The notes: a model not told the origin generated them from the letters alone. Positions 20,209 to 51,396 are shown, counted from the first letter of the stretch. The stretch: DNA of 64,000 nucleotides from Desulfatibacillum sp. (GCA_020725555.1 DYEU01000032.1:241656-305655); one strand, 5' to 3'. A program made the numbers and translations.

Positions 20209-21405
20209 TCAGCCCCTTGCGGGGGGCTCCTCCGGCGCGGCGGGGGCGTTCGCGACCCGCCCCGTCCCGAGAAGAGCGAGCACCCGCCGGGCGACCTCGA
20301 AGGCGGCCTCCGGCCGGGCCAGGCGCTTCGCCTGACGCTTGAGGCGGCTCAGGCGCGGGGGGTCGGCGAGCAGGCGTTCGATTTTCCAGGTCAGGGTGGC
20401 GATCGGCCCGATTTTCACTGCCGCCCCGTTTTCCAGCAGATAATCGGCGTTGCGGCTTTCCTGTCCGGGAATGGGGTTGACGATCGCAAACGGCGTCCCC
20501 CGCGCCAGGATCTCGGAAGCGGTCAGGCCGCCCGGCTTGCTGATCACGAGATCGGCGACCGCAAGCCAGCGGTCCAGCTCGGAGGTGTATCCCAGCACCC
20601 GGAGGCGATGGGGGGAAGGCGGCGCAAGCGCCGCCAGGCGCCGCTCGAGCCGGGCGTTGCGGCCGCAGACCACGACCGCCTCGATCGGCCGCGCGATCGC
20701 CAGCACGGATGCGAGAATCGACTCGACCGGGCCGACGCCGAACCCGCCGGAGAGCAGGAGCACGATCGGCCGCTCGCCCTGGCACCCCAGGGCCTGCAGG
20801 CAGGGCCCGCGGCGCACGGGGCGGCCGAAGGCCGGATGGATCGGGATCCCCGTGACCGCGATCCGCTCCGCGGAAACGCCGAGCGCCCGGACGTAGGCCG
20901 CGCACTCGGAGGTGGCAAGGAAGTAATGCTCGCAGGGCTCCTGGACCCAGAGGCGATGGGCCATGAAATCGGTCACCACCGTCACCTGGGGGAGGCTCGT
21001 CTTGCCGCGCCGTCGCAGCGAGGCGATGATCTCCGCAGGCAGAAAGTGGGTGTTGATCACGAGGTCCCAGGGCTTGGCCTGCAGGAGCTTGAGAAAGGGC
21101 TTGAGGTTCTGCTTCTCCAGGGCGACCCGCAGCGCGGCCGCCGCCGGGTCTTTGGGGGAGGGACGGTCGAGGACGTCGTAGACGAAGCCGAGAAGATGCG
21201 GGGCGCGGTTTGCGAAATCGAGGTAGCCCTTGCCGTAGAGACGGCGGAAGGCCTTGCTGGCCAGGCTCAGGACGTCGCGGTTCTCGATCGCGCAGCCGGG
21301 GGCGAGCTCCCGCAGGGCGAGCTCAACCGCCTCGGCGGCCCGCAGGTGCCCGCCGCCGACCGATGCCGAAAGAATGAGGATGCGCGCCGCGGGGGAAGGC
21401 TCCAT
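20209..21405 (-). CDS. MGDG-synthase/UgtP-family diacylglycerol glycosyltransferase (GT28-like)
   Basis: N-terminal ILILSASVGGGHLRAAEA motif and HFLPAEI..., typical of the MGDG_synth domain. ATG at 21405 chosen; the 29 codons upstream in the track ORF are Arg-rich and lack support. Confidence 0.8.
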   Translation of the reverse strand: MEPSPAARILILSASVGGGHLRAAEAVELALRELAPGCAIENRDVLSLASKAFRRLYGKGYLDFANRAPHLLGFVYDVLDRPSPKDPAAAALRVALEKQNLKPFLKLLQAKPWDLVINTHFLPAEIIASLRRRGKTSLPQVTVVTDFMAHRLWVQEPCEHYFLATSECAAYVRALGVSAERIAVTGIPIHPAFGRPVRRGPCLQALGCQGERPIVLLLSGGFGVGPVESILASVLAIARPIEAVVVCGRNARLERRLAALAPPSPHRLRVLGYTSELDRWLAVADLVISKPGGLTASEILARGTPFAIVNPIPGQESRNADYLLENGAAVKIGPIATLTWKIERLLADPPRLSRLKRQAKRLARPEAAFEVARRVLALLGTGRVANAPAAPEEPPARG

Positions 21406-21499
21406 GTACCGCAACCGGGGGGGATGCCGGTTCACCTTCTTTCGAAGTACCGAAACGCGGCGCCGCAGGCAAGGGAAATTCCCGCCGGGCAATCCAAAT

Positions 21500-21528
21500 C
21501 TAGCTGGATCCTAGCCTCAGGCCAACGA
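21500..21528 (+). promoter_or_regulatory. Candidate Pho box upstream of phoB (three 11-bp-phased units)
   Basis: CTAGCTG (21500), CTAGCCT (21511) and CCAACGA (21522). 70-100 bp upstream of the phoB ATG. Confidence 0.45.
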
Positions 21529-21598
21529 AAGGAAAACAGAATGATCGCTTCGGAGCCTCGGCAGACCATGCCGGGCCCGTCAGGGAGGGGTTGAGCCG

Positions 21599-22291
21599 AT
21601 GGCCAAAGAGCGCATCCTGGTCGTCGACGATGAGGAAGACATCGTCGAACTGGTCCGTTTTCACCTCGCCCGCGAGGGGTTCGCCGTGGAGACGGCCGCA
21701 AGCGGCGAGGAGGCCCTGAAGAAAGTCCGGCAGGGGGCCTTTGCGCTGCTCGTCCTGGACCTCATGCTCCCCGGGCTGGACGGCCTGGAGGTCGCCCGTG
21801 CCCTGAAGGCCGAAACCCGCACCGCGGGCCTTCCGATCGTCATGCTGACGGCCAAGGGCGAGGACGCCGACGTCGTGGCCGGCCTCGAGCTCGGGGCCGA
21901 CGACTACGTCACCAAGCCGTTCAGCCCGCGGGTTCTGCTCGCCCGCATCAAGGCCGTCTTGCGGCGCCGCTCGCGGGCGGCGGTCGACGACCAGAGCGTG
22001 ATCACGATCCACGATCTCGAGATCCACCCCGGGCGGCGCTCGGTCCTCGCGGGCGGAAAACCGATCGACCTCACCTTCACCGAGTTCCAGCTGCTCACGT
22101 TTTTGGCCCGCCGCCCCGGATGGGTGTTCACCCGCTCCCAGATCGTGGATGCCGTGCGCGGGACCGACTACCCCGTCACCGACCGCAGCGTCGATGTCCA
22201 GGTGGTGGGCCTGCGGAAGAAGCTCGGCCCCTACGGCCGCTACATCGAGACGGTGCGCGGGGTGGGGTACCGCTTCCGCGAGGCGCCATGA
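21599..22291 (+). CDS. phoB: OmpR-family response regulator PhoB
   Basis: REC domain (ILVVDDEEDI, LDLMLPGLDG, MLTAKG) plus winged-helix (TVRGVGYRF). Coupled to a PhoR-like kinase and surrounded by pst, phn and phoU genes. Confidence 0.9.
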   Translation: MAKERILVVDDEEDIVELVRFHLAREGFAVETAASGEEALKKVRQGAFALLVLDLMLPGLDGLEVARALKAETRTAGLPIVMLTAKGEDADVVAGLELGADDYVTKPFSPRVLLARIKAVLRRRSRAAVDDQSVITIHDLEIHPGRRSVLAGGKPIDLTFTEFQLLTFLARRPGWVFTRSQIVDAVRGTDYPVTDRSVDVQVVGLRKKLGPYGRYIETVRGVGYRFREAP

Positions 22292-24117
22292 AGCCGCCCC
22301 GCAGACTCCTCTGGCGCCTCTTTTTCTCCTATCTCTTCATCGCCCTCGGGGCGCTTTCCGTGGCGGGATGGCATTTCTCCCGCGGCCTGGAACGATTCTT
22401 CGAAGAGCAGCTCACCGCCGACCTCTTCGGCCGCGCCCGGCTGATCGAACAGGAAATCCAGCCGCTGCTCGATCCACTGCAGGCCGAGGCCGTGGACGCC
22501 GTCTGCAAGCGGCTGGGGCGCCACGCCAACACCCGCTTCAGCGTCGTACTCCCCGAGGGCAAGGTCATCGGCGACACCTGGGCGGCCCCGGATACCCTGG
22601 ACAACCACGCCGGCCGGCCGGAAATCGCCGCGGCCCTCGCCTCCGGATCCGGCCGCGCCCGGCGCTACAGCTCCACCCTGCGCCAGAACGTGCTCTATGC
22701 CGCCGTGGCCGTCGAGTCCGAGGGGCGGCGCCTCGGCGTCGTCCGGGCGGCCTTTCCGCTCTCGCACATGGAAGCCCAGATGGCGGAGATCCGCCTCGAG
22801 TTCTTCGCCGTCGGGGCCCTCGTGGCCCTGCTCGCCCTAGCCGTCACGCTGCTGATCTCCCGCCGCTACGGCCGCAAGGTCGAGGAGCTCAAGGACGGGG
22901 CGCGGCGGCTCGCCCGCGGCGAGCTCGGCCATCGTCTCCCCATCCCCGATTCCGAGGAGCTCGGCGGGCTCGCCGAGTCCCTCAACCGCATGGCCGCCGA
23001 GCTCGAGGCACGCCTGCAAACCGTGGTGCGCCAGCGAAACGAGCTCGAGGCCGTGCTCTCGAGCATGGTGGAAGGGGTCATCGCGGTCGACCCCGGGGAG
23101 CGCATCCTCAGCCTAAACCCCGCCGCCGCGCGCTGGTTCGAACTCGACGCGGAGCGGGTGCGCGGGAAAACCATCCCCGAGGCGGTCCGCAACCACGCCA
23201 TCCAGCAGTTCATCCTGCGCGCCCTGGCGACGCCCGCCGTGCTGGAAGAGGACATCACCGTCTACCGCGACGGCGAGCGCATCCTGAACATCCGGAGCAC
23301 CCCGCTGCGCGGCGCCGGGACGGAGGCGATCGGCGTCCTCATCGTCTTCAGCGACGTCACCCGCCTCAGGCGCCTCGAGGAGGTGCGCCGCGATTTCGTG
23401 GCCAACGTCTCCCACGAGATCAAGACCCCTCTCACGGCCATCCAGGGGTTCGTCGAGACGCTGCAACAGCACGGCTTCGAGAACCCGGCGGAGGCCTCGC
23501 GCTTTCTGCAGATCATCGCGCGGCACGCCGACCGCCTCAAGGCCATCGTGGACGACCTGCTTTTGCTCTCACGGATCGAAAACGAGGGCGAGCGCGGAGG
23601 GCTCAAGCTCGAGCCGGTGCGTCTGGAGCGGCTGCTGCAAAGCGCGGTGCAGATCTGTCGCCTCCCGGCCCAGGAAAAGGGGATCCCGATCACGGTGGAG
23701 GCCGACCCCTCCCTGTTCACCGCCGCCGACCCCGTGCTCCTCGAGCAGGCCGTGGTCAACCTGCTGGACAACGCGATCAAGTACAGCGACCCCGGCAAAC
23801 CCGTCGCCGTGCGCTGCCGCGCCACCGGGGGGATCGTGGCGATCGAGGTCGAGGACCGCGGCATCGGCATCGAGCGCAAACACCTGCCCCGCCTCTTCGA
23901 GCGCTTCTACCGCGCAGACAAGGCACGCAGCCGAAGCCAGGGGGGGACCGGGCTGGGCCTGGCGATCGTCAAGCACATCGCCCAGGCGCACGGGGGGCGG
24001 GTCTCCGTGGAAAGCCGGGTGGGCGAGGGAAGCCGCTTCCGCATCGAGCTGCCGCTCGGCCGGGGCGGCGAGGCGGCCCCGGCGGCTGCCGATCAGCCGA
24101 AGCGGCCGGTGATGTAA
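22288..24117 (+). CDS. phoR: Phosphate-regulon sensor histidine kinase PhoR-like (2 TM with about 170-aa outer domain, HAMP, PAS, HisKA, HATPase)
   Basis: H-box [15 protein letters not shown]-boxes DRGIGI and [16 protein letters not shown] overlap with the phoB stop. Confidence 0.85.
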
Positions 24118-25096: not shown

Positions 25097-26149
25097 CTAT
25101 TTCGCTTCCTTCAGGACGACGAGGTTTTTCACGTTCTCGGCGACCTTCTTGCGCTCGGCCTCCGGGAGCGGGATCAGGCCCTTCTCGCTCAGGTAGCCGT
25201 CTTTGCCCCAGGCCTTCTCGCTCGTGAACTCGGCAAGGTATTCCTGGATCCCCGGGATCACGCCGACGTGCGCCTTTTTCACGTAGAAAAAGAGCGGCCG
25301 GGAGAGGGGGTACTTCCCGTCGGCGATGTTTTCGAAGCTGGGGACATGGCCGTCCACCTTGGCCCCCTGGATCTTGTCGGTGTTCTGGTCGAGGAAGCTG
25401 AAGCCGAAGATGCCCACGGCGTTCGGGTTGGCGACGAGCTTCTGCACGATCAGGTTGTCGTTTTCCCCGGCGTCCACCCAACCGCCGTCCTCGCGCAGCG
25501 AAGCAAACACCTTCTGGAACTTCTTGGCGTCCTCCTTGGAGAGCTTTTTCAGCGACTCGAAGGCGAGCGCACCGCGCTCCATGGCGAGCTCAAGAAAGGC
25601 ATCCCGCGTCCCCGAGGTGGGCGGCGGGCCGAGGACCTCGATCTTCACGTCCGGAAGCGCGGGGTTGACCTCTTTCCAGGTCTTGTAGGGGTTGGCCACC
25701 AGCGCCTCACCCCCCTTGGGGTCGGGGACCTCCTTGGCAAGCGCAAGGAAAATGTCCTTCGACGTAAACGACAGCGGGGGCGCCTTCTTCGAGTTGGCGA
25801 GCACGATCCCGTCGAAGCCGATCTTCACCTCGACGATCTCGGTCACGCCGTTTTTCTGGCAGGTCTCGAACTCGGAGGCCTTGATCGCCCGCGAGGCGTT
25901 GGAGATGTCCGGGTGCTGGACGCCGACCCCGGCGCAGAAGAGCTTGAAGCCGCCGCCCGTCCCGGTCGATTCGATCTTGGGGGTCTTGAACCCGCCCGCC
26001 TTGCCGAAACGCTCGGCCACGACCGTGGCGAAGGGATAGACGGTGGAGGAGCCGACGATGCTGATCGCATCGCGCTGCTGGGCCCGGGCCGGAATGACGG
26101 CGGCCAGGCAGAACACCAACGCCAGGGAAACAACGGTTAACCTCTTCAT
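25097..26149 (-). CDS. pstS: Phosphate ABC transporter substrate-binding protein (PstS family)
   Basis: Signal peptide [31 protein letters not shown] and SGTRDAF motifs. Confidence 0.88.
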
Positions 26150-26247
26150 GAATGCCCTCCTTTTGCATTGGGGAGAATGTGGATTCTGTCGATGACGTCG
26201 GATCTGCGGGCAACGTAAGCGCCCGGCGTGAGCCGATTGTGGGGTTT

Positions 26248-26265
26248 GGGTTTGAATTCGGTTAG
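26248..26265 (-). promoter_or_regulatory. Candidate internal Pho box upstream of pstS (two units)
   Basis: + strand GGGTTTG (26248) and CGGTTAG (26259), 11 bp apart (gene orientation CTAACCG aatt CAAACCC). About 100 bp upstream of the pstS ATG, directly after the pstA stop. Confidence 0.45.
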
Positions 26266-26269: not shown

Positions 26270-27574
26270 TCACCAACGCCGCTCGAAGCGCTTGCGCAGC
26301 CAGATCGCCCCCGCGTTCATCACCACCAGGAACGCCAGCAGGACGAGAATCGCCGCCGAGGTGCGCTCCACGAAGGCGCGCTCCGGGCTGTCCGCCCAGA
26401 GGTAGATCTGCACCGGCAGCACGGTCGCCGGGTCGGTAAAGCCCTTGGGGATTTCCACGATGAAGGCCACCATGCCGATCATGAGCAGCGGGGCGCTTTC
26501 CCCCAGGGCGCGCGCCATGCCGATGATCGTCCCGGTCAGCATGCCCGGAAGCGCCAGCGGCAGCACGTGGTGCAGAACCGTCTGCATGCGCGAGGCCCCG
26601 ACCCCCAGCGCGGCCTCGCGGATCGAGGGCGGGACGGACTTCAGCGCCGAGCGGCCGGCGATGATGATCGTGGGCAGGGTCATGAGCGTGAGCACCAGCC
26701 CGCCGACGAGCGGGGCCGAGCGCGGCAGGTGCAGGAAATTCAAAAACACGGCCAGCCCCAGCAGGCCGAAGACGATCGAGGGCACGGCCGCGAGGTTGTT
26801 GATGTTGACCTCGATCAGGTCGGTGATCCGGCCCTTGCGCGCGAACTCCTCGAGATACACCGCGGCCGCGACCCCGATGGGGAAGGAGAGCATCAGCGTG
26901 ACCGCAAGCGTGAAGAAGGAGCCGCTGACCGCCCCCCAGATCCCGGCCTGCTCGGGCTCGCGCGAGTCGCCGGCGGTGAAGAAGGTGCGGTTGAAGCGCT
27001 TCTCGAGCCGTCCCTCCGCCGCCAGGCGCTCCAGCCAGGCGAATTGGCGGTCCGAGACGCGGCGCTCGGCCTCGGGGAGATCGCGGCGGAAATGGCCCTT
27101 GACCGCCATGTCGATGTCGGCCCCGGCCTTGAGCCAGACCTCGCGCGTCTGCCCGATCACGCCGGGATCGCGCATGACGAGATCGCGGAGATCGTAGACC
27201 GCGGCGCTGCTGACGAGGGCGGCGAGCTCGCGCCGCTCCCGGCGCCCCTCGACGTCGGGGAAGAGCCGCCCCAGGCTCGCGCGGATGAGCTGGCCGTAGT
27301 CGGCCTGGGCGAGCGCCTCGGCGTGCAGGACCTCGGGGTCGAAATGGACCGGCAGCCGGATTTCCGTCTGGCGGAAGGCGCTCACGCCGTTGGCGAGGAG
27401 GCTTGCGAACATCAGGGCGAGAAACCCCAGGCTCAGAACCACCGCTGCCAGCCCAAGGAGGCGGAACCGCCGTTCGCTGCGGTAGCGCCGGGGGAGGCTC
27501 GCCCGCACGACGGCGATCGTGCGGCTGTTTTCCGGGGTTTTCCCGGCCCTCGGGTGCCCTTGCGTCTTACTCAT
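26270..27574 (-). CDS. pstA: Phosphate ABC transporter permease PstA (long form)
   Basis: EAA-type loop GMARALGESAPLLMIG. 434 aa with an N-terminal extension. Confidence 0.88.
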   Translation of the reverse strand: MSKTQGHPRAGKTPENSRTIAVVRASLPRRYRSERRFRLLGLAAVVLSLGFLALMFASLLANGVSAFRQTEIRLPVHFDPEVLHAEALAQADYGQLIRASLGRLFPDVEGRRERRELAALVSSAAVYDLRDLVMRDPGVIGQTREVWLKAGADIDMAVKGHFRRDLPEAERRVSDRQFAWLERLAAEGRLEKRFNRTFFTAGDSREPEQAGIWGAVSGSFFTLAVTLMLSFPIGVAAAVYLEEFARKGRITDLIEVNINNLAAVPSIVFGLLGLAVFLNFLHLPRSAPLVGGLVLTLMTLPTIIIAGRSALKSVPPSIREAALGVGASRMQTVLHHVLPLALPGMLTGTIIGMARALGESAPLLMIGMVAFIVEIPKGFTDPATVLPVQIYLWADSPERAFVERTSAAILVLLAFLVVMNAGAIWLRKRFERRW

Positions 27575-28955
27575 ATTGCTCCCGGTAACGGCGCACGATG
27601 TAGAGGGCGATGACGTTCAGGCAGAGGGTCACCACGAACAGCACCAGCCCCAGGGCGAAGGCGGCGAGCGTCTTGGGGCTGTCGAACTCCTGGTCGCCGA
27701 TCAGCAGGGTCACGATCTGGACGGTGACCGTGGTCACGGCCTTGAGGGGATTCACGGTGAGGTTGGCGGCAAGACCCGCCGCCATGACCACGATCATCGT
27801 CTCCCCGATGGCCCGGGAGACCGCCAGGAGGATCCCCCCCATGATCCCGGGGAGCGCGGCGGGAACGACCACGCGCCGTACGGTCTCCGAGCGGGTCGCC
27901 CCCAGGCTGTAGGCGCCGTCCCGCAGCGACTGGGGGACGGCGTTGATGAAATCGTCGGAGAGCGAGCAGACGAAGGGGATGATCATGATCCCCATGACGA
28001 CGCCGGCGGCAAGGGCGCTCTCCGAGGCGACATCGAGCCCGAGCAGGCCGCCTGCGTCGCGGACGAAGGGGGCGACGGTCAGGGCGGCGAAAAAGCCGTA
28101 CACCACGGTGGGGATGCCGGCGAGAATCTCGATCAGCGGCTTGGCGACCGCGCGGAAGCTCTTTCCGGCATACTCCGAGAGATAGATGGCCGACATCAGC
28201 CCGATCGGGACCGCGACCACCATGGCGATGGCGGAGATGAGGGCCGTCCCCAGAAAGACGGGGACGGCGCCGAAGGCACCCGAGGCCCCCACCTGGTCGG
28301 CGCGGATCGCCATCTGCGGGCTCCAGGAGAGGCCGAAGAGAAACTCCCCGACGGGGATGATGCGGAAAAAGAGAACCGCCTCGTAGACCACGGAAAGGAC
28401 GATGCCGACGGTGGTGAAAACGGCGATCGTGGAGCAGGCGACGAGCATGGCGGTCAAAATGCCCTCGACGTGGTTGCGCGCCCGGAGCGTCGGCCGCAGG
28501 CGGCGGCGCACGAGGAGGGCCATGGCGGCGGCCAGGGAGAGCGTCACCACGGCGAGCGCCTGGCGGCTCAGGCCGAGAAGCCGCCGGTAGGTCGCCGCGG
28601 CCTCCCGCACCGCCGGATCCGCTGCCGTCTCCTCGAAACGCCCGCCGGCGACATTGCGGATGTCGTTCACGATCAGGCTGAGCCGGTCCCCGGGCAGGCT
28701 GCGCTGGGGCTCGGGGAGGCCCTCGACGACGATCCGGGTGATCACCTGGGATTCAAAGGCAAGCCAGAGGGCAAACAGCAAGATCGCCGGCAGGGCGCAC
28801 CACAGAGCGACCAGGGCGCCGTGATAATTCGGCCGGGAGTGCAACCTCTGCGCCCGGCCGCCTGCGCCGGCCAGGGCGAAAGCCCGGCGCCGGCCGAGGT
28901 GGTAGGCCGCCGCGGAAAAGGCGAGCAGCACGGCAAGCAGGACAAACGGAGGCAT
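27567..28955 (-). CDS. pstC: Phosphate ABC transporter permease PstC (long form)
   Basis: SRAIGETMIVVMAAG loop typical of PstC. 462 aa with an about 150-aa N-terminal extension. 8-nt overlap with pstA. Confidence 0.88.
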   Translation of the reverse strand: MPPFVLLAVLLAFSAAAYHLGRRRAFALAGAGGRAQRLHSRPNYHGALVALWCALPAILLFALWLAFESQVITRIVVEGLPEPQRSLPGDRLSLIVNDIRNVAGGRFEETAADPAVREAAATYRRLLGLSRQALAVVTLSLAAAMALLVRRRLRPTLRARNHVEGILTAMLVACSTIAVFTTVGIVLSVVYEAVLFFRIIPVGEFLFGLSWSPQMAIRADQVGASGAFGAVPVFLGTALISAIAMVVAVPIGLMSAIYLSEYAGKSFRAVAKPLIEILAGIPTVVYGFFAALTVAPFVRDAGGLLGLDVASESALAAGVVMGIMIIPFVCSLSDDFINAVPQSLRDGAYSLGATRSETVRRVVVPAALPGIMGGILLAVSRAIGETMIVVMAAGLAANLTVNPLKAVTTVTVQIVTLLIGDQEFDSPKTLAAFALGLVLFVVTLCLNVIALYIVRRYREQYE

Positions 28956-29025
28956 CGACCCCTTTCTCCGCCCATGGCGGCCCGGGAGTCCGGGCCTGTC
29001 GAAGAGGACGTAGTGTTGCGGTCTT

Positions 29026-29065
29026 TGGTTAGGTTTCGGTTAGACTTCGGTTAACATCTCGTTAG
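29026..29065 (-). promoter_or_regulatory. Pho box array upstream of pstC (four units at exact 11-bp phase)
   Basis: + strand TGGTTAG (29026), CGGTTAG (29037), CGGTTAA (29048) and TCGTTAG (29059). Gene orientation CTAACGA/TTAACCG/CTAACCG/CTAACCA. 71-110 bp upstream of the pstC ATG. Confidence 0.7.
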
Positions 29066-29070: not shown

Positions 29071-29358
29071 TCATTCGTAAAAGAGCTCCGGCGAGACGGC
29101 CAAGAATTGGGCCTGCCGCGAAAGAAGCGCCACCCGCGGCAGGGCCTCCTGGGGGGAGTTGCGGGTGGCGGCGAACGCGAGCTCCGCCGCCAGGCGGCGG
29201 ACGTAGTCGACCCGCTTGACGCAATGCATGCAGGTGTCGTTGTTCTTGTCGGCGTCGTGAAGAAGGCAACTGCGGCAGGGGCTGGTCATGGGTTCCATCC
29301 TTTTCACAGCGTGCGGTTTTTGGATCGATCCGCCGCGGCCGCGGCGGATCACGACCAC
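29071..29358 (-). CDS. Hypothetical small Cys4 (zinc-ribbon-like) protein
   Basis: SPCRSCLLHDADKNNDTCMHCVKRVDY (CxxC-N13-CxxC). Natural composition, unlike the overlapping frames. The true start is probably an internal Met (29298 or 29289). Confidence 0.45.
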   Translation of the reverse strand: MVVIRRGRGGSIQKPHAVKRMEPMTSPCRSCLLHDADKNNDTCMHCVKRVDYVRRLAAELAFAATRNSPQEALPRVALLSRQAQFLAVSPELFYE

Positions 29359-32995: not shown

Positions 32996-32998
32996 CGA

Positions 32999-43398: not shown

Positions 43399-44036
43399 AA
43401 GAGCCCGTCGAGGTAGCCGGCCGCGATGTAGGCGAGCTCGCCGGCGGCCGCCCCAAGGCAGCGCGCCTTGCGCACGCGGGGGAGAAGGTGCGCCAGCCGC
43501 CGCGCCATCCGCCGCATCAGGGGCTCCGTTTTGCCGAAGCTCACCGAAACGACCGCCCGCTCAGGCGAAACCCCCTCCCGCCGCCGCAGCGGCGTGCCGT
43601 TCACCTCCCCCCCCCGGCCGGCGACGGCCGAGAACATCTCGCCGCTGAAGGGCAGAAAGACCGCGCCGGCGACGGGCGTGGGGGGGGAGGCGCCGTTGCG
43701 CCGGTAACAGGCGACCGCGGCGCAGAAGAAGGGCAGGCCCTGCAGGAAATTGACCGTGCCGTCGAGGGGGTCGACGATCCAGAGGTAGCCGCCGTCGCCG
43801 GGGATCTCGCCGCCCTCCTCGCCGAGCACGGCGTGATCCGGAAAGCGGGAGCGGACCGTCTCCACCACGGCCGCCTCGCACAGCCGGTCGGTGGCGAGCT
43901 TGACGTCGTGAAGCGCCTGCGCGCGGACCGCGGGCCCGCGCCGGAAATGCTGCATCTGGAGCTCGCCTGCGCGGCGTGCCGCCTCCCGGGCCGTCGCCGC
44001 GAGCTCCCGCGCCGAGGGCGGCCGGCCGGCCCTCAC
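43194..44036 (-). CDS. Inositol-monophosphatase-family (SuhB/CysQ-like) phosphatase, terminal gene of the C-P lyase operon
   Basis: AVLGEEGG, WIVDPLDGTVNF and WDFAAG motifs. 4-nt overlap with the phnM stop. Confidence 0.85.
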   Translation of the reverse strand: MRAGRPPSARELAATAREAARRAGELQMQHFRRGPAVRAQALHDVKLATDRLCEAAVVETVRSRFPDHAVLGEEGGEIPGDGGYLWIVDPLDGTVNFLQGLPFFCAAVACYRRNGASPPTPVAGAVFLPFSGEMFSAVAGRGGEVNGTPLRRREGVSPERAVVSVSFGKTEPLMRRMARRLAHLLPRVRKARCLGAAAGELAYIAAGYLDGLFYEGIRLWDFAAGRILVEEAGGFFAARETAPGEWQVAAGAPGLEALLAPRPAGAGGGSSLRKRRPVIR

Positions 44037-45241
44037 CGCTGCCCCCCCGGATCGGCCGGGTCGGCCGCGCGGAAGACTTCGCGCCCGCCGACGTAGGTCC
44101 GCACCACGGCCGGGACCCTGCGGCCGTCGTCGACGAGAACGAGGTCGGCCGCCTTGCCCTCCTCGATCGACCCGGTGAGGCCGTCGATGCCCGCCGCCCG
44201 GGCCGGGTTCAGGCTGATCAGCCTCACGGCGGAGGGCAGGTCGAGGATGCCCTCGCCGTGCAGCTTGAGGGCGGCGTGCAAGAGCGACATGGGGGCGTAG
44301 TCCGAGCAGAGGATGTCGCCCAGGCCGGCGCGCAGGGCCTCGCGGGCGGAGAGGTTCCCGGTGAGCGAGGCCCCGCGGAGCACGTTGGGTGAGCCGAGCG
44401 AGACCATCAACCCCCGACTGCGGGCGGCCTGTGCCGCCTCCCGGTTGACCGGGAACTCGGAGAGCGAAACCCCCAGGCGGCTCACCGCCTCGATTTTGGC
44501 TTCGCTGTCGTCGTCGTGGCTCGCCATGCGGATGCCCCGCGCCCGGCAGGCCGCCGCCAGGCGCTCGATGCCCAACCAGGAGAGGCGGGCGCTGGCCTCG
44601 AGCCGGCGGGCGATGACGCGCTCGATGTGATCCTCCGTGAGGCCGCGCGCCTTGGCGTAGTAGGCGCGGAAATGCTCGATCTCGCGGAACTGGCCCTGGC
44701 CGGGGGTGTGGTCCATGAGGGAGAAGAAGTCGATCCGGCCATGGCCGATCAGGTCCTCGACCGTCTCCACGGCCTCCGTGTTGGTGATCTCGTAGCGGGC
44801 GTGAATGCGGGTGCGGGCCTGGAACCCGCCCCGCAGCTCGTGGATCTGGCCGATGAGAAAGTGGGCCATTTCGGCCGTGCGGAAGGGCGGGTTTTCATCG
44901 GAGGGGAGAAAGCAGAGGCAGTGGTAGATGGTCGTCACCCCGCAGGCGACGAGCTGCTTGTCGAGCTCGTGCAGCGCCACATCGACGGGAAAACGCCCTC
45001 CCGGCCGCGGCTGGATCGCGTTTTCGATCACATCGCTGTGGATGTCGATGAAGCCGGGGACGAGCAGCCGGCCGCGGGCGTCGACAGCCGGCCGCGAAGA
45101 CACTCCCGCGGCCGAGCGGGACACGGCCCGGATGATCCCCCCTTCGATCTCCACGGCGGCGTCGGGCAGGACCGCCTCGGGGGTGACGACACGGGCGTTG
45201 ACGATGCGAAACGCGGGCGGCGGAGAATTCCACTCGTTCAT
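44033..45241 (-). CDS. phnM: Alpha-D-ribose 1-methylphosphonate 5-triphosphate diphosphatase PhnM
   Basis: Amidohydrolase fold, GFIDIHSD and MASHDDD motifs. ATG at 45241 overlaps the phnL stop (ATGA). Confidence 0.88.
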   Translation of the reverse strand: MNEWNSPPPAFRIVNARVVTPEAVLPDAAVEIEGGIIRAVSRSAAGVSSRPAVDARGRLLVPGFIDIHSDVIENAIQPRPGGRFPVDVALHELDKQLVACGVTTIYHCLCFLPSDENPPFRTAEMAHFLIGQIHELRGGFQARTRIHARYEITNTEAVETVEDLIGHGRIDFFSLMDHTPGQGQFREIEHFRAYYAKARGLTEDHIERVIARRLEASARLSWLGIERLAAACRARGIRMASHDDDSEAKIEAVSRLGVSLSEFPVNREAAQAARSRGLMVSLGSPNVLRGASLTGNLSAREALRAGLGDILCSDYAPMSLLHAALKLHGEGILDLPSAVRLISLNPARAAGIDGLTGSIEEGKAADLVLVDDGRRVPAVVRTYVGGREVFRAADPADPGGQR

Positions 45242-45945
45242 CGCTGGGGTTCCTTTGCGGGCAGGGCGCACCCGTCGTCCATCAGGGAGGCGAGGGGTGA
45301 CCCCTCGTGAAAGACGGCGACCATCGTGGTGCCGCGGGCCTTCATCTCGGAGAGCACCGCGACCACGACCTCCATGGCGCGCGGGTCCAGGGAGGCCGTG
45401 GGCTCGTCGAGCAGCAGCAGGCGCGGGGGGCGGATGACCGCCCGGGCGAAGTTGACGCGCTGTTTTTCGCCGCCGCTGAAGGTCGCGGGGTAGGCGTCCC
45501 AGAGCGCCCGGTCGATCCCCAGCCGCTCAAGCAGCGCCTGCGCGCGCATCCGGGCCTCCGCCGGCGGGGTCCCCGCCGCCGTGAGCGGCTCGGCCACGAC
45601 ATCCACGGCGGGGACGCGCGGCAGCGCGTGCAGAAACTGCGTGACGTAGCCCATCTCCCGGCTGCGGATGCGCAGCACCTCGGTTTCCGAGGCCCGGGCG
45701 AGGTCGATGTCCCCGCCGTCCGCCGTGCGGTAGCGGATGCTGCCGCGGCCCGGGAGGTAACTGCGGTAGATGCACTTGAGGACCGAGCTCTTGCCCGCCC
45801 CGCTCGGGCCCGTCAGGGCGAGCGCCGCCCCGGCGGGCAGGCGGAAGGAGACCCCCTCGAAGCCGAGGATCTCCTTGCCGCCCTGCATGTGGCAAACGAA
45901 CCGTTTGGCCAGGTCTTCGACGCGCAGCAGGATGTCCGGGCTCAC
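45238..45945 (-). CDS. phnL: C-P lyase system ATP-binding protein PhnL
   Basis: GPSGAGKSS, FSGGEKQRVNFARA and LLLDEPTASLD. Position between phnK and phnM. Confidence 0.88.
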   Translation of the reverse strand: MSPDILLRVEDLAKRFVCHMQGGKEILGFEGVSFRLPAGAALALTGPSGAGKSSVLKCIYRSYLPGRGSIRYRTADGGDIDLARASETEVLRIRSREMGYVTQFLHALPRVPAVDVVAEPLTAAGTPPAEARMRAQALLERLGIDRALWDAYPATFSGGEKQRVNFARAVIRPPRLLLLDEPTASLDPRAMEVVVAVLSEMKARGTTMVAVFHEGSPLASLMDDGCALPAKEPQR

Positions 45946-46787
45946 AGGACCGAATTCACCAGAAGCTGGGTGTAGGGGTGCTGGGGGTCCTCAAGAATCT
46001 GGTCAGAGAGCCCCTGTTCGATGATCTCGCCGTGGCGCATGACGATGGTGCGCGAGGTGAGCAGCCGGATCACCCCCAGGTCGTGCGACACGACGAGGGT
46101 GGCGATCCCGAGCTCACGCTGCAGGGAGCGAAGGAGGTCGAGCACTTTCGCCTGCACCGAGACGTCGAGGCCGGTCGTCACCTCGTCGAGCAGCAGGACC
46201 GCCGGCCGGGTGGAGAGGGCCTTGGCGATCTGGACGCGCTGCTGCATGCCGCCCGAGAAATTGCGCGGCGGCTCATCCATGCGCGCAAGCGGCACCTCGG
46301 TCTGCCGGAGCAGTTCGGAGGCCCGCTCGCGGATGCGCCCGACGTGCCGCCAGCCGGCCATGAGCAGCCGCTCGGCGATGTTGCCACCGGCGCTCACCTT
46401 GAGCCGCAGCCCGAGCCGCGGGTTCTGGTAGACGATGCCCATGTGCTCGTTGCGGATCCGGCGGCGCTGAAAGGGGCTCAGGGCGAAGAGGTTCCGGCCG
46501 CCGCCTCCCGCCGCGGCGTCGGCCACGGCGAGGCGGTACTCGCCCGCCGTGGGCTCGAGGTCGAAGTGCAAAAGCCTCACCACCGTGCTCTTCCCCGAGC
46601 CGCTCTCCCCCACGATCCCGAGCACCTCGCCCGGGTAGAGGTCGAAGGAGACCTCCCGGCAGGCGAGGATCGCGCCGCAGCGTGGGCAGCGGTTCGTCTC
46701 CCGGAGCGCGCCGGTCCGGTCGAGGCACTCCCCGCAGCCTGCCCCAAAGCGCTTGGTGAGCCCGCGCACCGCAAGCAGGGGGGTCAT
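45942..46787 (-). CDS. phnK: C-P lyase system ATP-binding protein PhnK
   Basis: GESGSGKST, FSGGMQQRVQIAKAL. N-terminal Cys cluster GCGEC...CPRCG typical of PhnK. Confidence 0.88.
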   Translation of the reverse strand: MTPLLAVRGLTKRFGAGCGECLDRTGALRETNRCPRCGAILACREVSFDLYPGEVLGIVGESGSGKSTVVRLLHFDLEPTAGEYRLAVADAAAGGGGRNLFALSPFQRRRIRNEHMGIVYQNPRLGLRLKVSAGGNIAERLLMAGWRHVGRIRERASELLRQTEVPLARMDEPPRNFSGGMQQRVQIAKALSTRPAVLLLDEVTTGLDVSVQAKVLDLLRSLQRELGIATLVVSHDLGVIRLLTSRTIVMRHGEIIEQGLSDQILEDPQHPYTQLLVNSVL

Positions 46788-47722
46788 CGGCTCCCCCCGG
46801 GGGCCTCGGCCGGCGGCGCGTTCCGCGTTCGCCGCTTTTCACAGAAGGCGGTATCCGAGCAGACCCAGCTCCGCAGGCCGCGCGCATCGTCGATCACCTC
46901 GTCGAGGAAGCTGTCGCCGGCGCCGCAGCGGCTGCAGGATCGGCCGGGGAAGCGTTCCACGCGGGAGGCGAAATCCTCGAAGGAGAGGGGCTCGACGTCC
47001 GTGTGCGGCGGAACGGCGTAAATGCGTTTTTCGCGTCCCGCACAGAAGAGGAACAAATTCTCGGCCCGGTGAAGACGCGGCAGGTCCCAGCGGGGGATGG
47101 GGCTCGGGTCCATGAGGTAGCGGCCGTTCACCATCACCGGGTACCGCGCGCCGACCGTGATCTCGCCGTAGCGCACGATGTCCTCGTAGAGGTAGAGCCA
47201 CATGCGGCTGTAGTCGGCCTCGGCGTGCATGCGCCGCGTCTCCCGCTCGGAGGGCTCGACCAGCCGCAGGGGCTCGGGGATCGGCACCTGGAAAATCAGC
47301 ACCTGCCCGGAATCGAGCTTCTCCTCCGGGATGCGGTGCCGGGTCTGAATGAGGGTCGCCGCACGGGTGTCGGTGGTCATGCGCACCCCGGCGACCCGGC
47401 CGACGAACTTCTTGATGTTGACGGCGTTCACCGAGTCGTCGCAGCCCTGGTCGATCACCTTGAGCACGTCCTCGGGGCCGATCAGGGCGAGGGTCAGCTG
47501 AAGCCCCCCCGTCCCCCAGCCGCGGGCGATCGGCATCTCCCGCGACCCGAAGGGGACCTGGCAGCCGGGCAGGGCGATCGCCTTGAGGATGCGTCGCCGG
47601 ATCTCGCGCTTGGCGCTCTCGTCGAGGAAGGCGTAGGAGTAGCGCGACGCCCCCTCCTCGAGGGCGCGGCGCCACCCGCCGGGGAAAGCGGTGCCGGAGG
47701 GCGTCGGCTCAGGCCTCGTCAC
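46784..47722 (-). CDS. phnJ: Alpha-D-ribose 1-methylphosphonate 5-phosphate C-P lyase PhnJ
   Basis: YAFLDE..KREIRR, PFGSREMP and the C-terminal Cys cluster CSRCGAGDSFLDEV...WVCSDTAFC. Confidence 0.92.
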   Translation of the reverse strand: MTRPEPTPSGTAFPGGWRRALEEGASRYSYAFLDESAKREIRRRILKAIALPGCQVPFGSREMPIARGWGTGGLQLTLALIGPEDVLKVIDQGCDDSVNAVNIKKFVGRVAGVRMTTDTRAATLIQTRHRIPEEKLDSGQVLIFQVPIPEPLRLVEPSERETRRMHAEADYSRMWLYLYEDIVRYGEITVGARYPVMVNGRYLMDPSPIPRWDLPRLHRAENLFLFCAGREKRIYAVPPHTDVEPLSFEDFASRVERFPGRSCSRCGAGDSFLDEVIDDARGLRSWVCSDTAFCEKRRTRNAPPAEAPGGSR

Positions 47723-48815
47723 GGCCGTCTCCTTTCGCCGCCGCCCCTCCCCCGCGGATGGCCCGCAGGCGGTCGAGGTCCGATTGGAAGGTCACGTAAT
47801 GCGGCAGCTTGTAGTGGTTGCAAAAGCCCATGGACTCGATCCCGTCCACGTGGGTGAGGACGAACTCCTCGTCCTCCGACGGCGAGGAGGGCTCCTCGCT
47901 GTCCAGGGCCCGGTCCAGGACCGCCATGGCGATGGCCTTGGTTTCGTTGTGGCCGAAGCAGAGCCCGTAGCCCAGCCCGAAGCGCGCCCCGCCCTCGCCC
48001 TCGCCGATCCGCGCGATCACCTCGGCCTCGGTGACGAGGATCTCGCCGATCGTCTCCTCGCCGCCGTCCTCCGGCCGCCGGATGCGAACGGGCACGGTCC
48101 CCACGCGGAGCTCCCCAATCACCGGGTGGACCGAGCCGTAGCCCCGCATGTTGGAGTACGCGAGCGCAAGCAGCCCCCCCGTCTCCCCCCGCGCCAGCGC
48201 CTGCAGGCGGGCGCTCCGCGGGGCGGGGAAGGTGAGCGCCTCGCGGGTTGCGTCCACCAGGCGCTCGGGCGCCCGGCGCAAGGAGCGGCTTTCCACGAGC
48301 AGCCCCTCGCGGCGCAGCAGGTCGATCACCTTGGGGAGCTCCGGCGGCAGCGGCCCGGCCTCGGCCGCGCGCAACTCCCGGAGCAGCCGCTCGCGGGCGG
48401 CCTGCGGATCGGCGTCGAGCTCGAAGTCGAGCAGCCGCAGGGTGTAGTCGGCGGTGGGCCCCAGGACCTGGCCGCCGGGGATCTCCTTGAACGCGGCCGA
48501 GATCCGGCGCACGATGCGCATGCCGGAGGTCGCAATCGGCAAGGTCGCGCCCCGGCGCGGCAGCGTCGTGCGGTAGGCGCGCAGGATGAAGGCCGCCTCG
48601 AGGGGGTCGCCCGCGGCCTGCTTGAGGGCGAGGGCGGCGAGATCCGGGGCGTAGAGCGATCCCTCCCCCATCACGCGGTCGACGGCGAGATGCAGCGCGC
48701 TGCGGACCTGCGCGACCGTCGGCGGCGGGACCCCGGGGGCCAAGCGGCGCAGCTCGCGGAAGCGCTCGGCGTTCTCGATGGCGGCCGTTCCGCCCTTGAC
48801 GGCGACATAGCCCAT
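47709..48815 (-). CDS. phnI: C-P lyase core complex subunit PhnI
   Basis: MGYVAVKGG start and FCNHYKLPHYVTFQS motif. 368 aa. Confidence 0.9.
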   Translation of the reverse strand: MGYVAVKGGTAAIENAERFRELRRLAPGVPPPTVAQVRSALHLAVDRVMGEGSLYAPDLAALALKQAAGDPLEAAFILRAYRTTLPRRGATLPIATSGMRIVRRISAAFKEIPGGQVLGPTADYTLRLLDFELDADPQAARERLLRELRAAEAGPLPPELPKVIDLLRREGLLVESRSLRRAPERLVDATREALTFPAPRSARLQALARGETGGLLALAYSNMRGYGSVHPVIGELRVGTVPVRIRRPEDGGEETIGEILVTEAEVIARIGEGEGGARFGLGYGLCFGHNETKAIAMAVLDRALDSEEPSSPSEDEEFVLTHVDGIESMGFCNHYKLPHYVTFQSDLDRLRAIRGGGAAAKGDGRDEA

Positions 48816-48816
48816 G

Positions 48817-49419
48817 TCAGCCTCCGATCCGGATGCGTGTCGAGCGCGGAATGGCCATGAGCGCCCCTTCCGGCTGGAGAAAGACGGCCTCCACGCCCAG
48901 GGGGAACTCGGCGTTCACCGCGGCCAGCTCCTCGAAAACGAAGAGGGGGATCCCATCCATTTCGGGGGCGATTCCCGATGCCGCTCCGATTCCCGGGCCG
49001 GAGAGCCGCACGCGCAGGCGCTCCGGCGTGGGGCTGGCCGGGCCGGGCCCAAGGCAGCAGACCACGGTCGCCCCCTGCTGCGGCTCCTCGGCGGTTCCCC
49101 GCCGCGGCCGGGAAAGGACCCCTCGGCCCGCCCCCCAGATCCAGAGGAAATCGGCCTCCTCGACGCCGGCCGGGCGCGCGCGGGTTTCGCGCCCCAGAAA
49201 CTCGCCCAGCCTGCGCGCCTCCGGAGACTCCCCGGCGACGCAATAGCTCACGGTCTCGTCAAGCAGGCAGCGGGCGAGCGCCCGGGCGCAGGCAAACGGC
49301 GCCGCGGGGTCGCCGGGCTCGAGGCGGGCGATTCTCCCCGGCCGGCTGAAGGCGGCAAGCAGGGCACGAAAGATCCGTTGGCTTTCCCATTCCGGCGGGG
49401 TGATCGCGGGCATCCTCAC
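48817..49419 (-). CDS. phnH: C-P lyase core complex subunit PhnH
   Basis: SQRIFRALLAAFSRPG motif. Position between phnG and phnI. Confidence 0.85.
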   Translation of the reverse strand: MRMPAITPPEWESQRIFRALLAAFSRPGRIARLEPGDPAAPFACARALARCLLDETVSYCVAGESPEARRLGEFLGRETRARPAGVEEADFLWIWGAGRGVLSRPRRGTAEEPQQGATVVCCLGPGPASPTPERLRVRLSGPGIGAASGIAPEMDGIPLFVFEELAAVNAEFPLGVEAVFLQPEGALMAIPRSTRIRIGG

Positions 49420-49892
49420 TCCCCCAGGGATCCGAAATCGATGCGCTCGCCGGCCATGGAATCAAAGCGCACGCGGGTTGCGGCCGCGAAATGGGCGGTC
49501 TCCTGCAGCTTGCGGCGCCGGCGGGGGGCGAGGCGCCGGAGAAACTCCTCCAGCACACCCTTGGCCTCGGGGTGGCCGGACCGATCCACCGCCTCGGCCG
49601 CGGCCGCAAGCAGCGCCCCTTGCGGCTCGTCGCCGCAGACGGTGGCGGCACCGGTGGCCTCGCCCAGGCCGACCTCGGCCTCGGTCACGAGCAGCTCGCC
49701 CAGGTAAAAGGGTGTCGCGAACGGATCGCGGGCGGCGACGAGGAGGAGAGCCGGCTGCGGCGGCCTAAGCACCGCAAAGGGGGCCTTCTCCCAGAGTCGG
49801 TCCAGCACGGCCTCGAGCTCGGCTCGCTCGGCCGCCTCCAGGACAGCGAGGAGCCGCGGTTTCAGGCCGAAAACGGGGGTCGTTTCATCCAT
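49416..49892 (-). CDS. phnG: C-P lyase core complex subunit PhnG
   Basis: About 158 aa, [13 protein letters not shown] motif, 4-nt overlap with phnH. Confidence 0.85.
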
Positions 49893-50520
49893 AGAGATCG
49901 AGAAACCGGTTCAGGTCGTAAAAATCGGCAAAGCGCCGCTCGAGCGTTTCCCGGTCCCAGTCCCACCAGGCGATCGCCAAGAGCTTTTCGGCCACCGCTG
50001 CGGGGAACCGGGCCCGCAGCGGCCGGGCCGGCACGCCGGCGACCACCTGGTAGGGGGCCACCTCGCGGGTCACCACCGCGCCCGCGGCCACCACGGCCCC
50101 GGTCCCGATGCGCACCCCGGCCATGACCATGGCCCCATGGCCGATCCAGACGTCATGGCCGATCCGGCAGCCCCGACGTTTCCGCCAGGCGAAGACCTCC
50201 TCGTCGTCGCTGGCGGCGAACCCGTAGCGCACGCGGCGGTAGGTGCAATGGTGCTGGGTGACGCGGTGCATCGGGTGATCGCCGGGGTGGATGACGACAT
50301 GGGAAGCGATGGAGCAGAACTTGCCGATCTCGGAGTACATCACCGTCCCGTCCGTGCCGGCGAGATAGCTGTAGTCGCCGAGGCTCGAGGAGACCACCTG
50401 CCAGCCGGCGCCGATGTCGGTGTAGTCCCCGAGGCGCGAGTCGACCACTCGGGCCGAAGGGTCGATGCGGGGGAGGGCGGCCTCCGGGAGGCGCTCAAGT
50501 GCCGGGGTGGAATTCTTCAT
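49885..50520 (-). CDS. Hexapeptide-repeat (LbH) acyl/acetyltransferase, phosphonate-operon-associated type
   Basis: Left-handed beta-helix repeats ([31 protein letters not shown]). First gene of the phn operon, as in the transferase family I recall being annotated as a phosphonate-metabolism hexapeptide transferase. ATG at 50520 chosen (GGAAGG RBS; the Pho box would be only 13 bp from the track start at 50541). Confidence 0.75.
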
Positions 50521-50553
50521 GTCCTGCCTTCCGCGGGGCATCCTGAAACGGCA

Positions 50554-50593
50554 GGATTAGGCGCCGATGAGGCTGGGGTTAAAATACGGCAAA
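50554..50593 (-). promoter_or_regulatory. Pho box array upstream of the C-P lyase operon (four units)
   Basis: + strand GGATTAG (50554), CGATGAG (50565), GGGTTAA (50576) and CGGCAAA (50587) at exact 11-bp phase. 34-73 bp upstream of the ATG at 50520. Confidence 0.6.
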
Positions 50594-50635
50594 GCGTCCC
50601 GGACTCCGCCCCCGCGGGGGGCTCCGGCGGCCGTG

Positions 50636-50686
50636 CTCACGGAATCGCAACTTTTTCCTCACACGGCGCGAATTTTCTGGTAGAAT
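50636..50686 (+). promoter_or_regulatory. Candidate phoU promoter: CTCAC-type units in the -35 region plus an extended -10
   Basis: CTCACGG (50636) and CTCACAC (50658), 22 bp apart. The latter occupies -35 relative to TGgTAGAAT (50678-50686). phoU ATG at 50740. Confidence 0.4.
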
Positions 50687-50739
50687 GATAGCGTCCGCCG
50701 AGGGGCGAACGAGCGACCGCAACGAGGGGAACCCGGTGC

Positions 50740-51396
50740 ATGACCAAGCACTTCCGCAGAGAACTCGAAAACGTGAAGAAGCGGATCCTCACCCTGGGGT
50801 CCCTCGTCGAAGACCGTGTCCGCGAGGCGGCCCTGGCCGTCGAGCACCGGGACGGGGAGAGCGCCGAGCGCATCGTGAAGGCCGACTACGAGATCGACGA
50901 GCTGGAGGTCGAGATCGAGGAGGAGTGCCTGAAGATCCTCGCCCTGCACCAGCCGGTCGCCGTGGACCTGCGCTTCATCATCACCGTGATCAAGATCAAT
51001 AACGAACTCGAGCGGATCGGCGATCAGGTGGTGAACATCGGCCAGCGCGTCATGATCATCGCCAAGCGCCCCAAGCCGCCCTTCTCCTTCGACTACGGCG
51101 AGATGGCCGAAAAGGTGCAGCGCATGCTCAAGATGAGCCTCGATGCCCTCGTCAACCTCGACGTGGACATCGCCTACAAGGTGATCACGCTCGACGACGA
51201 GGTGGACCAGATCAAAAACGAGGCCTACGACCGCATCAAGCAGGCCATCCAGGATCTTCCCGAACGGGTCGGCTATTACATCAACCTCCTACTCATTTCG
51301 CGGCACCTGGAACGGATCGCCGACCACGCGACGAACATCGCCGAGGAAGTGGTCTATCTCGTGGAAGGCGAAATCTTCCGCCACACCCCCTACTGA
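50740..51396 (+). CDS. phoU: Phosphate signalling complex protein PhoU
   Basis: Two PhoU repeats with ERIGDQVVNI and ERIADHATNIAE motifs. 218 aa. Confidence 0.92.
   Translation: MTKHFRRELENVKKRILTLGSLVEDRVREAALAVEHRDGESAERIVKADYEIDELEVEIEEECLKILALHQPVAVDLRFIITVIKINNELERIGDQVVNIGQRVMIIAKRPKPPFSFDYGEMAEKVQRMLKMSLDALVNLDVDIAYKVITLDDEVDQIKNEAYDRIKQAIQDLPERVGYYINLLLISRHLERIADHATNIAEEVVYLVEGEIFRHTPY

Follow-up and report, generated by a model that had tools for sequence, protein, structure and literature searches.

Boxes read by PhoB-type regulators are known from several phyla. In Desulfovibrio vulgaris Hildenborough the box of PhoB (DVU1083), defined by DNA-affinity-purified chip (DAP-chip) and electrophoretic mobility shift assay (EMSA) (Rajeev et al. 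2011, PMC3333781; Rajeev et al. 2019, PMC6456213), is CCGTAAC-N4-CCGTAAC (CCGTAAC-cattCCGTAAC; PMC3333781, Table S7), with CCGTAACCATTCCGTAAC, CTGTAACAGCCCCGTAAC and ATGTCACACGGTTGTAAC among its sites. The (C/T)GT(A/C)AC core is shared by the orthologue-based sites of Syntrophobacter fumaroxidans and Geobacter lovleyi (PMC3333781; PMC6456213). The Pho box of cyanobacterial SphR, CTTAACCT, is composed of 8-bp repeats with a 3-bp linker, in at least three copies, and the Pho boxes of E. coli lie at a 10-bp distance from the -10 element (PMC1906773). The locus compared here with these systems is a stretch of 64,000 nucleotides from Desulfatibacillum sp. (GCA_020725555.1 DYEU01000032.1:241656-305655), called "the window" in the following, where arrays of short direct repeats with an 11-bp period precede genes of phosphorus metabolism. 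These arrays are very probably (at roughly 0.85) the Pho boxes of the host, with PhoB as the likely binder.

A first-pass annotation of the window had proposed candidate Pho boxes between 20.2 and 51.4 kb: its proposal is supported by repeat statistics, by footprinting in up to seven genomes, by a fixed promoter geometry and by the gene content beside phoBR. The expected traits of a Pho box are found, namely head-to-tail repeats about 11 bp apart, an array in front of both pst and phoB, and a -35 element replaced by the array, about 10 bp from the -10. Genes behind the arrays serve pst transport, phoB autoregulation, phn transport, C-P (carbon-phosphorus) lyase and phosphorus-free lipid synthesis. 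When open reading frames (ORFs) were chosen with the guidance of GC content at third codon positions (GC3) and their products annotated with Pfam, the gene content reported earlier for this interval was confirmed: the phosphorus genes are those of a monogalactosyldiacylglycerol (MGDG)-synthase-like glycosyltransferase, phoBR, pst, a small ORF, an RPH-like enzyme, a lipid operon that starts with a PHP-GT4 fusion, lysE, olsF, phnCDE, C-P lyase and phoU.

Repeat arrays, promoter geometry and conservation

The word GGTTAG/CTAACC occurs eight times in the 64 kb; all eight copies are intergenic, lie inside the Pho cluster and are oriented toward the downstream gene. The more degenerate [CT]TA[AG]C is found 36 times: same-strand pairs within 50 bp are nine, all at a distance of exactly 11, 22 or 33 bp, and the same distances hold for TAAC pairs (7 out of 7). 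DNA shuffled with its local composition yields, on average, 1.7 pairs of the former type and 0.7 of the latter. Every unit coordinate of the first-pass annotation was read back, and the word reported for it was present; the common orientation claimed for the arrays, which face the gene downstream, stands on both coordinates and word counts. Tandem Repeats Finder (TRF) calls the pstC array unaided (29023-29053, period 11), and no other.

In order to avoid circularity, a position weight matrix (PWM) of 11 positions was trained solely on the pstC arrays of six other genomes, and the window was scanned with it. Positions 6-10 of the matrix prefer A/T, against a background of about 69% GC, and correspond to the A/T-rich spacer of a Pho box, whose minor groove is touched by the wing of the protein in E. 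coli. Scores are highest at a spacing of 11 bp, when spacings of 8-14 bp are compared, and the best two-unit matches are those of pstC, pstS, olsF, phoB, C-P lyase, the RPH-like gene and phnC. In a dinucleotide-shuffle test, performed for each region, p is 0.002 for phoB, pstS and pstC, 0.008 for both the small-ORF/RPH and the lysE/olsF regions, 0.018 for phnC and 0.026 for the C-P lyase/phoU region; the 18 intergenic regions outside the Pho set are either non-significant or devoid of 11-bp specificity. The top four-unit scores of the window, on both strands, are those of pstC (50.0 bits), olsF (25.4), phoB (22.0), pstS (19.6), phnC (19.4), C-P lyase (14.5) and PHP-GT4 (12.7). Four-unit positions scoring at least 14 bits are 10 in the window, compared with a mean of 0.08 in 100 local-composition shuffles, where the maximum is 15.2. 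A match at 63926-63958 (plus strand, 14-18 bits) was discarded: it is AT-rich, shows no 11-bp specificity and is situated at the end of the window, with a ParA/CbiA-like gene as its neighbour, while the gene downstream of it falls outside. Within the 64-kb window, to which the scan was limited, the motif is not equally frequent or equally phased elsewhere, the top scores being those of Pho promoters.

In the seven best promoters, exactly 8 bp separate the last unit from a downstream -10-like hexamer (nAnnnT), with A at position 2 in all seven and T at position 6 in six of them; the gap from the CTAAC core to the hexamer is 10 bp. The strongest array is that of pstC (29012-29065, minus strand), where CTAACGA (29059-29065), TTAACCG (29048), CTAACCG (29037) and CTAACCA (29026) lead to AACACT (29012-29017). 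Three more are found on the same strand. The pstS promoter (26212-26265) contains CTAACCG (26259-26265), CAAACCC (26248), CCCACAA (26237) and CTCACGC (26226), with TACGTT at 26212-26217; the promoter of the PHP-GT4 operon (36814-36867) contains TTCATCA (36861-36867), TTAGCGG (36850), GTAATCG (36839) and CTAACCC (36828), with TTGAAT at 36814-36819; the C-P lyase promoter (50540-50593) contains TTTGCCG (50587-50593), TTAACCC (50576), CTCATCG (50565) and CTAATCC (50554), with CAGGAT at 50540-50545. On the plus strand, the phoB promoter (21489-21542) consists of GCAATCC (21489), CTAGCTG (21500), CTAGCCT (21511), CCAACGA (21522) and the hexamer CAGAAT (21537-21542), the phoB ATG being located 56 nt beyond it. 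The olsF promoter (37727-37780) consists of CAAACCA (37727), TTCGCAT (37738), TTAGCAA (37749), CTAAGAC (37760) and GAAGAT (37775-37780), with the ATG at 37820, and that of phnCDE (39899-39952) of TCAACGC (39899), CAAACCG (39910), CTAATGA (39921), CTCACCC (39932) and TACAAC (39947-39952).

Shorter arrays are found at three other positions. The one facing lysE (37645-37673, minus strand) has the units CTAACCG (37667-37673), GCAACGA (37656) and CTAACCG (37645), with a poorly defined -10. The promoter of the RPH-like gene (29462-29493, plus strand) has CTCATCG (29462) and CTAACCC (29473), then 8 bp and the weak hexamer CATCCG. Finally, a tentative three-unit array (29382-29410, minus strand: TTAGCGC, CTCACCT, CTCATCG) faces a small Cys-rich ORF; it has no convincing -10, and reads GTAGC/CTCAT/CTCAT in two relatives (L083 and L085).

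Although all its coordinates hold, the unit list of the first-pass annotation needs revision. For pstS the units are four (26226, 26237, 26248, 26259), not two; the three units listed for each of phoB, PHP-GT4 and phnC are joined by a fourth, at 21489, 36861 and 39899, respectively. In the RPH region, 29462 and 29473 are conserved, while 29418 and 29484 are not units, and 29407, taken as a unit of the RPH-like gene, overlaps the minus-strand array facing the small ORF. The olsF array, described as weaker, ranks second in strength within the window.

Conservation was followed in six syntenic loci (L081, L083, L085-L088, with PstC identities of 92, 86, 86, 79, 79 and 77%) and in three extra loci centred on PhnJ (L089-L091). 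Orthologous promoters retain the arrays, the maximum being seven genomes. The four-unit pstC array is in 11-bp phase in 7/7 genomes. An array of three or four units precedes phoB in all seven as well, three of which have a different divergent neighbour; since the array is kept despite this change, it belongs to phoB, as in autoregulation. The pstS array is found in six genomes, where the -10 is TAGGTT, TAGGGT or TACTTT; the PHP-GT4 array and that of the RPH-like gene, with two or three units, are also found in six. Arrays of olsF (-10 CAGGAT, GAAGCT or TAGCCT) and lysE are present in four genomes each, that of phnC in three, being kept in L089 and in L090, with TACAAG as the -10 in the latter. 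For C-P lyase, three or four genomes feature the array: L090 has CTAAC/CTCAT/CTAAA, 8 bp and GAGAAT, L091 has CTAAC/CTAAT/CTAAT. The 8-bp spacing is kept in the relatives, each with its own hexamers (TACCTT, TAGTTT, TAGGTT, GAGAAT, TAGCCT). What is conserved across genomes are the units (CTAAC, TTAAC, CTAGC, TTAGC, CTCAC, CTAAT), while spacers and flanks diverge. In five relatives, nearly all three-unit matches of at least 11 bits are intergenic and upstream of a Pho-type gene. CTAAC-type units in 11-bp phase also precede pstC in distant Desulfobacterota (L001, L004, L028, L044). At least six Desulfobacterota loci are among the contig-scan matches listed; the rest, mainly gamma- and alphaproteobacterial, serve for contrast only.

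The arrays also help in the choice of start codons. As the first-pass annotation had argued, starts at 36815, 39924 and 50541 are untenable, each falling within a unit or a -10. The corrected ATGs, at 36773 for PHP-GT4, 40005 for phnC and 50520 for the hexapeptide transferase of the C-P lyase operon, are each preceded by a GGAGG-type ribosome-binding site, and the proteins of the relatives are 616, 283 and 211 amino acids long, respectively. With the further corrections for LysE (37531) and for the MGDG-like gene (21405), five start codons are corrected by the analysis. The corrected N-terminus of the GT4 fusion is MQADLHVHS, with a PHP-type HxH motif: it supports the name of "PHP fusion" previously given to this protein, for which Pfam reports a PHP_C match only, below threshold.

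Promoter model, PhoB and alternative readings

By analogy with E. coli PhoB, the following mechanism may be proposed. A box would be made of two to four head-to-tail units of 11 bp, each with a core (C/T)TAAC(C/A) followed by an A/T-rich spacer. Under phosphate limitation, PhoR would phosphorylate PhoB (21599-22291), and dimers of PhoB~P would bind in tandem, on pairs of units. Since 8 bp separate the end of the promoter-proximal unit from the downstream -10-like hexamer, this unit occupies the place of the -35 element; from there it would recruit RNA polymerase. Nine promoters could be driven in this way: those of phoBR, pstCA, pstSB, the RPH-like PEP (phosphoenolpyruvate)-utilising enzyme, the PHP-GT4/PhoH/PAP2/GT operon, lysE, olsF, phnCDE and C-P lyase; the tenth array, facing the small ORF, may be added tentatively. 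A consensus scan for sigma-70 -35/-10 promoters between 20 and 40 kb found none, as expected if the arrays replace the -35.

The phoU promoter may be a different case. The first-pass annotation had taken its CTCAC-type words as units of a Pho box; we lean toward reading them as the -35 region of a sigma-70 promoter that is constitutive and has an extended -10 (CTCACA, 17 bp, TGgTAGAAT; 50658-50686, plus strand). This element, the sole consensus sigma-70 promoter in a scan of 39.5-52 kb, matches the consensus at 9 out of 12 positions, in addition to the TG upstream of TAGAAT; its CTCACA coincides with a canonical -35, and the register of the presumed units relative to the -10 is 3 bp different from that of all other promoters. 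The four-unit score is 6.7 bits, and the upstream CTCAC, at 50636, is not kept in L090. Yet, PhoB of D. vulgaris has phoU among its targets (DVU1475; PMC3333781), CTCAC is accepted as a unit variant at other promoters of the window, and CTCACA is kept in L090 together with GCAAC/GAAAC words.

For all other arrays the identity of the binding protein has to be considered. The product of phoB (21599-22291, plus strand) is an OmpR-family response regulator, with the REC and winged-helix Trans_reg_C domains of a PhoB orthologue, encoded with phoR next to pst. Its recognition helix is TDRSVDVQVVGLRKKL. The E. coli helix is EDRTVDVHIRRLRKAL, in a sequence that fits all published residue numbers checked. 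With respect to E. coli, the protein of the window shows the changes T194S, H198Q, R200V and R201G, with V197 and R219 kept, so that the base-contact set of E. coli (T194, V197, R201, R219) is not conserved as a whole. Arg201 makes a specific hydrogen bond to guanine in the crystal structure where PhoB is bound to DNA (PMC3973317). The helix is invariant in 117 out of 120 close PhoB homologues, from a search that gave relatives of at least 79% identity, and recurs as QIFG in two Desulfobulbales loci. Over 36 loci, CTAAC dimers per 100 kb are 21.2 with the Q198/G201 helix versus 1.0 with the H198/R200/R201 (HIRR) helix; for TGTCA dimers the figures are 2.2 and 7.4, respectively. Helix type thus appears to covary with motif type across loci, as a correlation only.

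A PhoB that has lost Arg201, a base-contacting residue in E. coli (PMC3973317), and which, among PDB sequences, matches MtrA and RegX3 best, not full-length PhoB, might read another sequence, leaving the arrays to a different regulator able to bind tandem repeats (another member of the OmpR family, or a repressor), encoded in another part of the genome and controlling the same phosphorus genes. This is improbable: an array precedes phoB itself in 7/7 genomes, with phoBR embedded in the cluster, and no other DNA-binding response regulator is present in the window, where only a sigma-54 activator and a hybrid kinase are found. Moreover, the covariation just described ties the motif to the PhoB helix, and the D. 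vulgaris orthologue of PhoB binds a near-identical box.

That the repeats are not protein sites at all, arising by chance or as structural features of AT-richer intergenic DNA (phased A-tracts, curvature) or as remnants of small repeats, is less probable still and largely refuted: intergenic DNA, about 11% of the window, does have a higher AT content than coding DNA, moderate two-unit scores are reached by two AT-rich regions outside the cluster (13280-13479 and 63924-64000) and a generic repeat finder (seed 9) detects no arrays in the whole window, but the matches outside the cluster lack 11-bp specificity, neither dinucleotide nor local-composition shuffles give arrays, orientation always matches the downstream gene, the distance to the -10 is fixed, and units are kept at orthologous promoters where spacers and flanks vary.

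The reading of the arrays as Pho boxes bound by PhoB has to face several points that weigh against it. The motif, with its phasing, statistical excess, orientation, conservation and constant distance from the -10, is observed; binding by PhoB, activation of the promoters and dependence on phosphate are the parts of this reading that we infer. For the PHP-GT4 region alone, p is 0.07 in the dinucleotide-shuffle test, and the C-P lyase/phoU region shows no phase specificity in the two-unit test. Degenerate units exist, such as TTCGCAT, CCCACAA and GCAATCC, and the arrays of lysE, the RPH-like gene and the small ORF are followed by hexamers that make poor -10 elements. The specificity scans covered 64 kb of the source genome and pieces of about 20 kb from the relatives. 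Finally, in the transactivation loop of PhoB, W184 and E191 of E. coli are replaced by R and T, respectively. In E. coli, activation is lost with W184R (PMC3973317), and the sigma contact may therefore differ from the E. coli model.

Gene content of the cluster and its surroundings

At the left of the cluster, phoB is followed by phoR (22285-24117, plus strand), coding for a histidine kinase with HAMP, PAS, HisKA and HATPase domains, as indicated by Pfam; its start is placed according to relatives of 610 amino acids. The pst genes lie on the minus strand between 24093 and 28955 and were assigned by Pfam, ORF translation and synteny: pstC at 27567-28955, pstA at 26270-27574, pstS at 25097-26149 and pstB at 24093-~24980. 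Their order, pstC-pstA-pstS-pstB, is unusual, with a second full Pho box separating pstA from pstS; PstC and PstA are long forms, containing DUF3708 and DUF3333. The Cys-rich ORF (29071-29289, minus strand) lies between the RPH-like gene and pstC, directly upstream of the latter in the window and in five relatives, where it is also called and the translations align. It encodes 72 amino acids here (MTSPCRSC...DKNN.TC..C) and 72-77 overall, with the motif MTSPCRSC..DKNN.TC..C..RV.YV; a Pfam search of the 72-residue protein matched no family. The RPH-like enzyme (29548-31920, plus strand), with PPDK_N, Rph_4th and PEP-utiliser mobile domains, adjoins pst and is kept in the relatives. Having a conserved box of two or three units in front, it is a candidate new member of the Pho regulon.

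The lipid-remodelling operon (31874-36773, minus strand), as annotated by Pfam, consists of the PHP-GT4 fusion (34923-36773), PIN-PhoH (33583-34785), PAP2 (32999-~33526) and GT1 (31874-32995). A weak four-unit array in front of PAP2 (33547-33586, minus strand), partly kept in relatives, was rejected as a promoter because it overlaps the phoH stop and its hexamer lies 6 nt from the PAP2 ATG. The C-P lyase operon (43194-50520, minus strand) includes the hexapeptide transferase gene, phnG, H, I, J, K, L and M, and an IMPase (inositol monophosphatase)-like gene, identified by Pfam and by comparison with relatives. For the MGDG-synthase-like gene, at the left edge of the cluster, no array in its own orientation was found in any genome compared: adjacency is the sole basis for placing it in the regulon.

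Genes flanking the cluster have no role in phosphorus metabolism: they encode molybdopterin synthesis, an Afu-like ABC transporter, a sigma-54 activator, a PEP-synthase-like protein, a Cys/Met enzyme dependent on pyridoxal phosphate (PLP), a FIST protein, a hybrid kinase and dsr products. The AfuABC-like transporter (6995-10818, plus strand), composed of a binding protein, a TOBE ATPase and a fused permease, has no Pho-box-like array upstream. A sigma-54-type -24/-12 element, GGGCACGGGCTTTGC, is found at 13398-13412 (plus strand), in an intergenic region of 47% GC; it adjoins the gene of the sigma-54 activator (10835-13279) and precedes a small ORF and a TauE-like exporter.

The closest homologues of PstC, PhoB and PhnJ belong to metagenome-assembled genomes (MAGs) of uncultured Desulfobacterales and Deltaproteobacteria, and the host is an uncultured, high-GC, Desulfobacterales-like sulfate reducer. 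A dsrMKJOP-like set (NrfD, 4Fe-4S proteins, nitrate-reductase-gamma-like protein; 56604-61646, minus strand) is consistent with a sulfate-reducing host. Searches of the window revealed neither tRNA genes nor Rfam families, which leaves no explanation in terms of RNA elements or integration sites. The first-pass annotation had seen no sign of horizontal acquisition, and we agree: the composition profile is flat, tRNA genes are absent and synteny is shared with the relatives.

Comparison with known systems

The nearest match is the D. vulgaris system, whose sites are located upstream of pstS, phoB, phoU and a kinase gene. Both belong to Desulfobacterota and relatives, and in both direct repeats with an 11-bp period are built on an xTAAC/xTCAC core. 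They share four of the five core bases: the first is G in D. vulgaris, (C/T)GT(N)AC, and C or T in the window (CTAAC/TTAAC), where GTAAC dimers are absent while CTAAC dimers are four. Also unlike those of D. vulgaris, the arrays of the window usually have four units.

With the E. coli Pho box (CTGTCAT-N4-CTGTCAT), the window shares tandem repeats of 7+4 bp, an A/T-rich spacer, the replacement of the -35 and a gap of about 10 bp, as well as, at the level of the system, phoBR autoregulation and the control of pst and phn. The half-site is different, since no TGTCA-N6-TGTCA dimers (up to one mismatch) are found in the 34-kb cluster, against four CTAAC dimers. The protein differs too: the PhoB helix of the window has DRSVDVQVVGLRKKL in place of DRTVDVHIRRLRKAL, with Arg201 lost, and W184 and E191 are R and T.

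The SphR box resembles the arrays in its 11-bp period, in the presence of at least three tandem units and in its TTAACC/CTAACC-like core; two units of the window read TTAACC. Unlike them, its consensus is offset by one T and it comes from an unrelated phylum; SphR, moreover, is reported to keep the DNA-contact residues of E. coli, which PhoB of the window does not.

As to the genes controlled, PlcP/Agt systems perform phosphorus-sparing lipid remodelling under PhoB control, by means of a phosphoesterase and a glycosyltransferase. We take the PHP-GT4 fusion to be a single-polypeptide analogue of the PlcP-plus-Agt pair. Unlike in PlcP/Agt systems, the genes of the window are contiguous with pst, phn and phoBR, and the phosphoesterase, of the PHP-domain type, is fused to GT4. 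An ornithine-lipid synthase gene is part of the phosphorus-sparing set here, likewise behind a probable Pho box, as in the OlsF lipid remodelling of Proteobacteria and D. alaskensis G20 (Bosak 2016, PMC5193443); that paper itself contains no description of a Pho box.

The comparison has practical consequences. A weight matrix and a promoter rule (four 11-bp units, 8 bp, -10) become usable for the prediction of Pho regulons in sulfate-reducing Desulfobacterota of a large group, uncultured for the most part and abundant in metagenomes. The RPH-like enzyme, the small Cys-rich protein, the PHP-GT4 fusion and LysE are nominated as products of new phosphate-starvation genes. How the helix sets half-site specificity could be tested in a natural setting, where R201G is paired with a G-to-C change in the core.

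A broader proposal, which we put forward tentatively, is that PhoB of Desulfobacterales and Desulfobulbales might form a distinct specificity class (Q198, V/F200, G201; loop R184), whose half-site has possibly switched to CTAAC from the (T/C)GT(A/C)AC of E. coli, Desulfovibrio, Syntrophobacter and Geobacter. Such a PhoB would directly control an enlarged and physically contiguous regulon, which would include a full programme of phospholipid replacement (PHP-GT4, PAP2, two further glycosyltransferases, OlsF, PIN-PhoH), the RPH-like enzyme as a PEP-dependent phosphotransferase, and the 72-residue Cys-rich protein at the head of the pst operon.

The first-pass annotation had not seen the unit described as a Pho box. 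A literature search for a CTAAC-type Pho box retrieved none, but the unit is undescribed only in part, as the D. vulgaris core is one base off and the SphR box is close: with these elements known, the unit is a new spelling of a known element. The arrays are a lineage-specific member of a well-known class of switches, rather than a new class.

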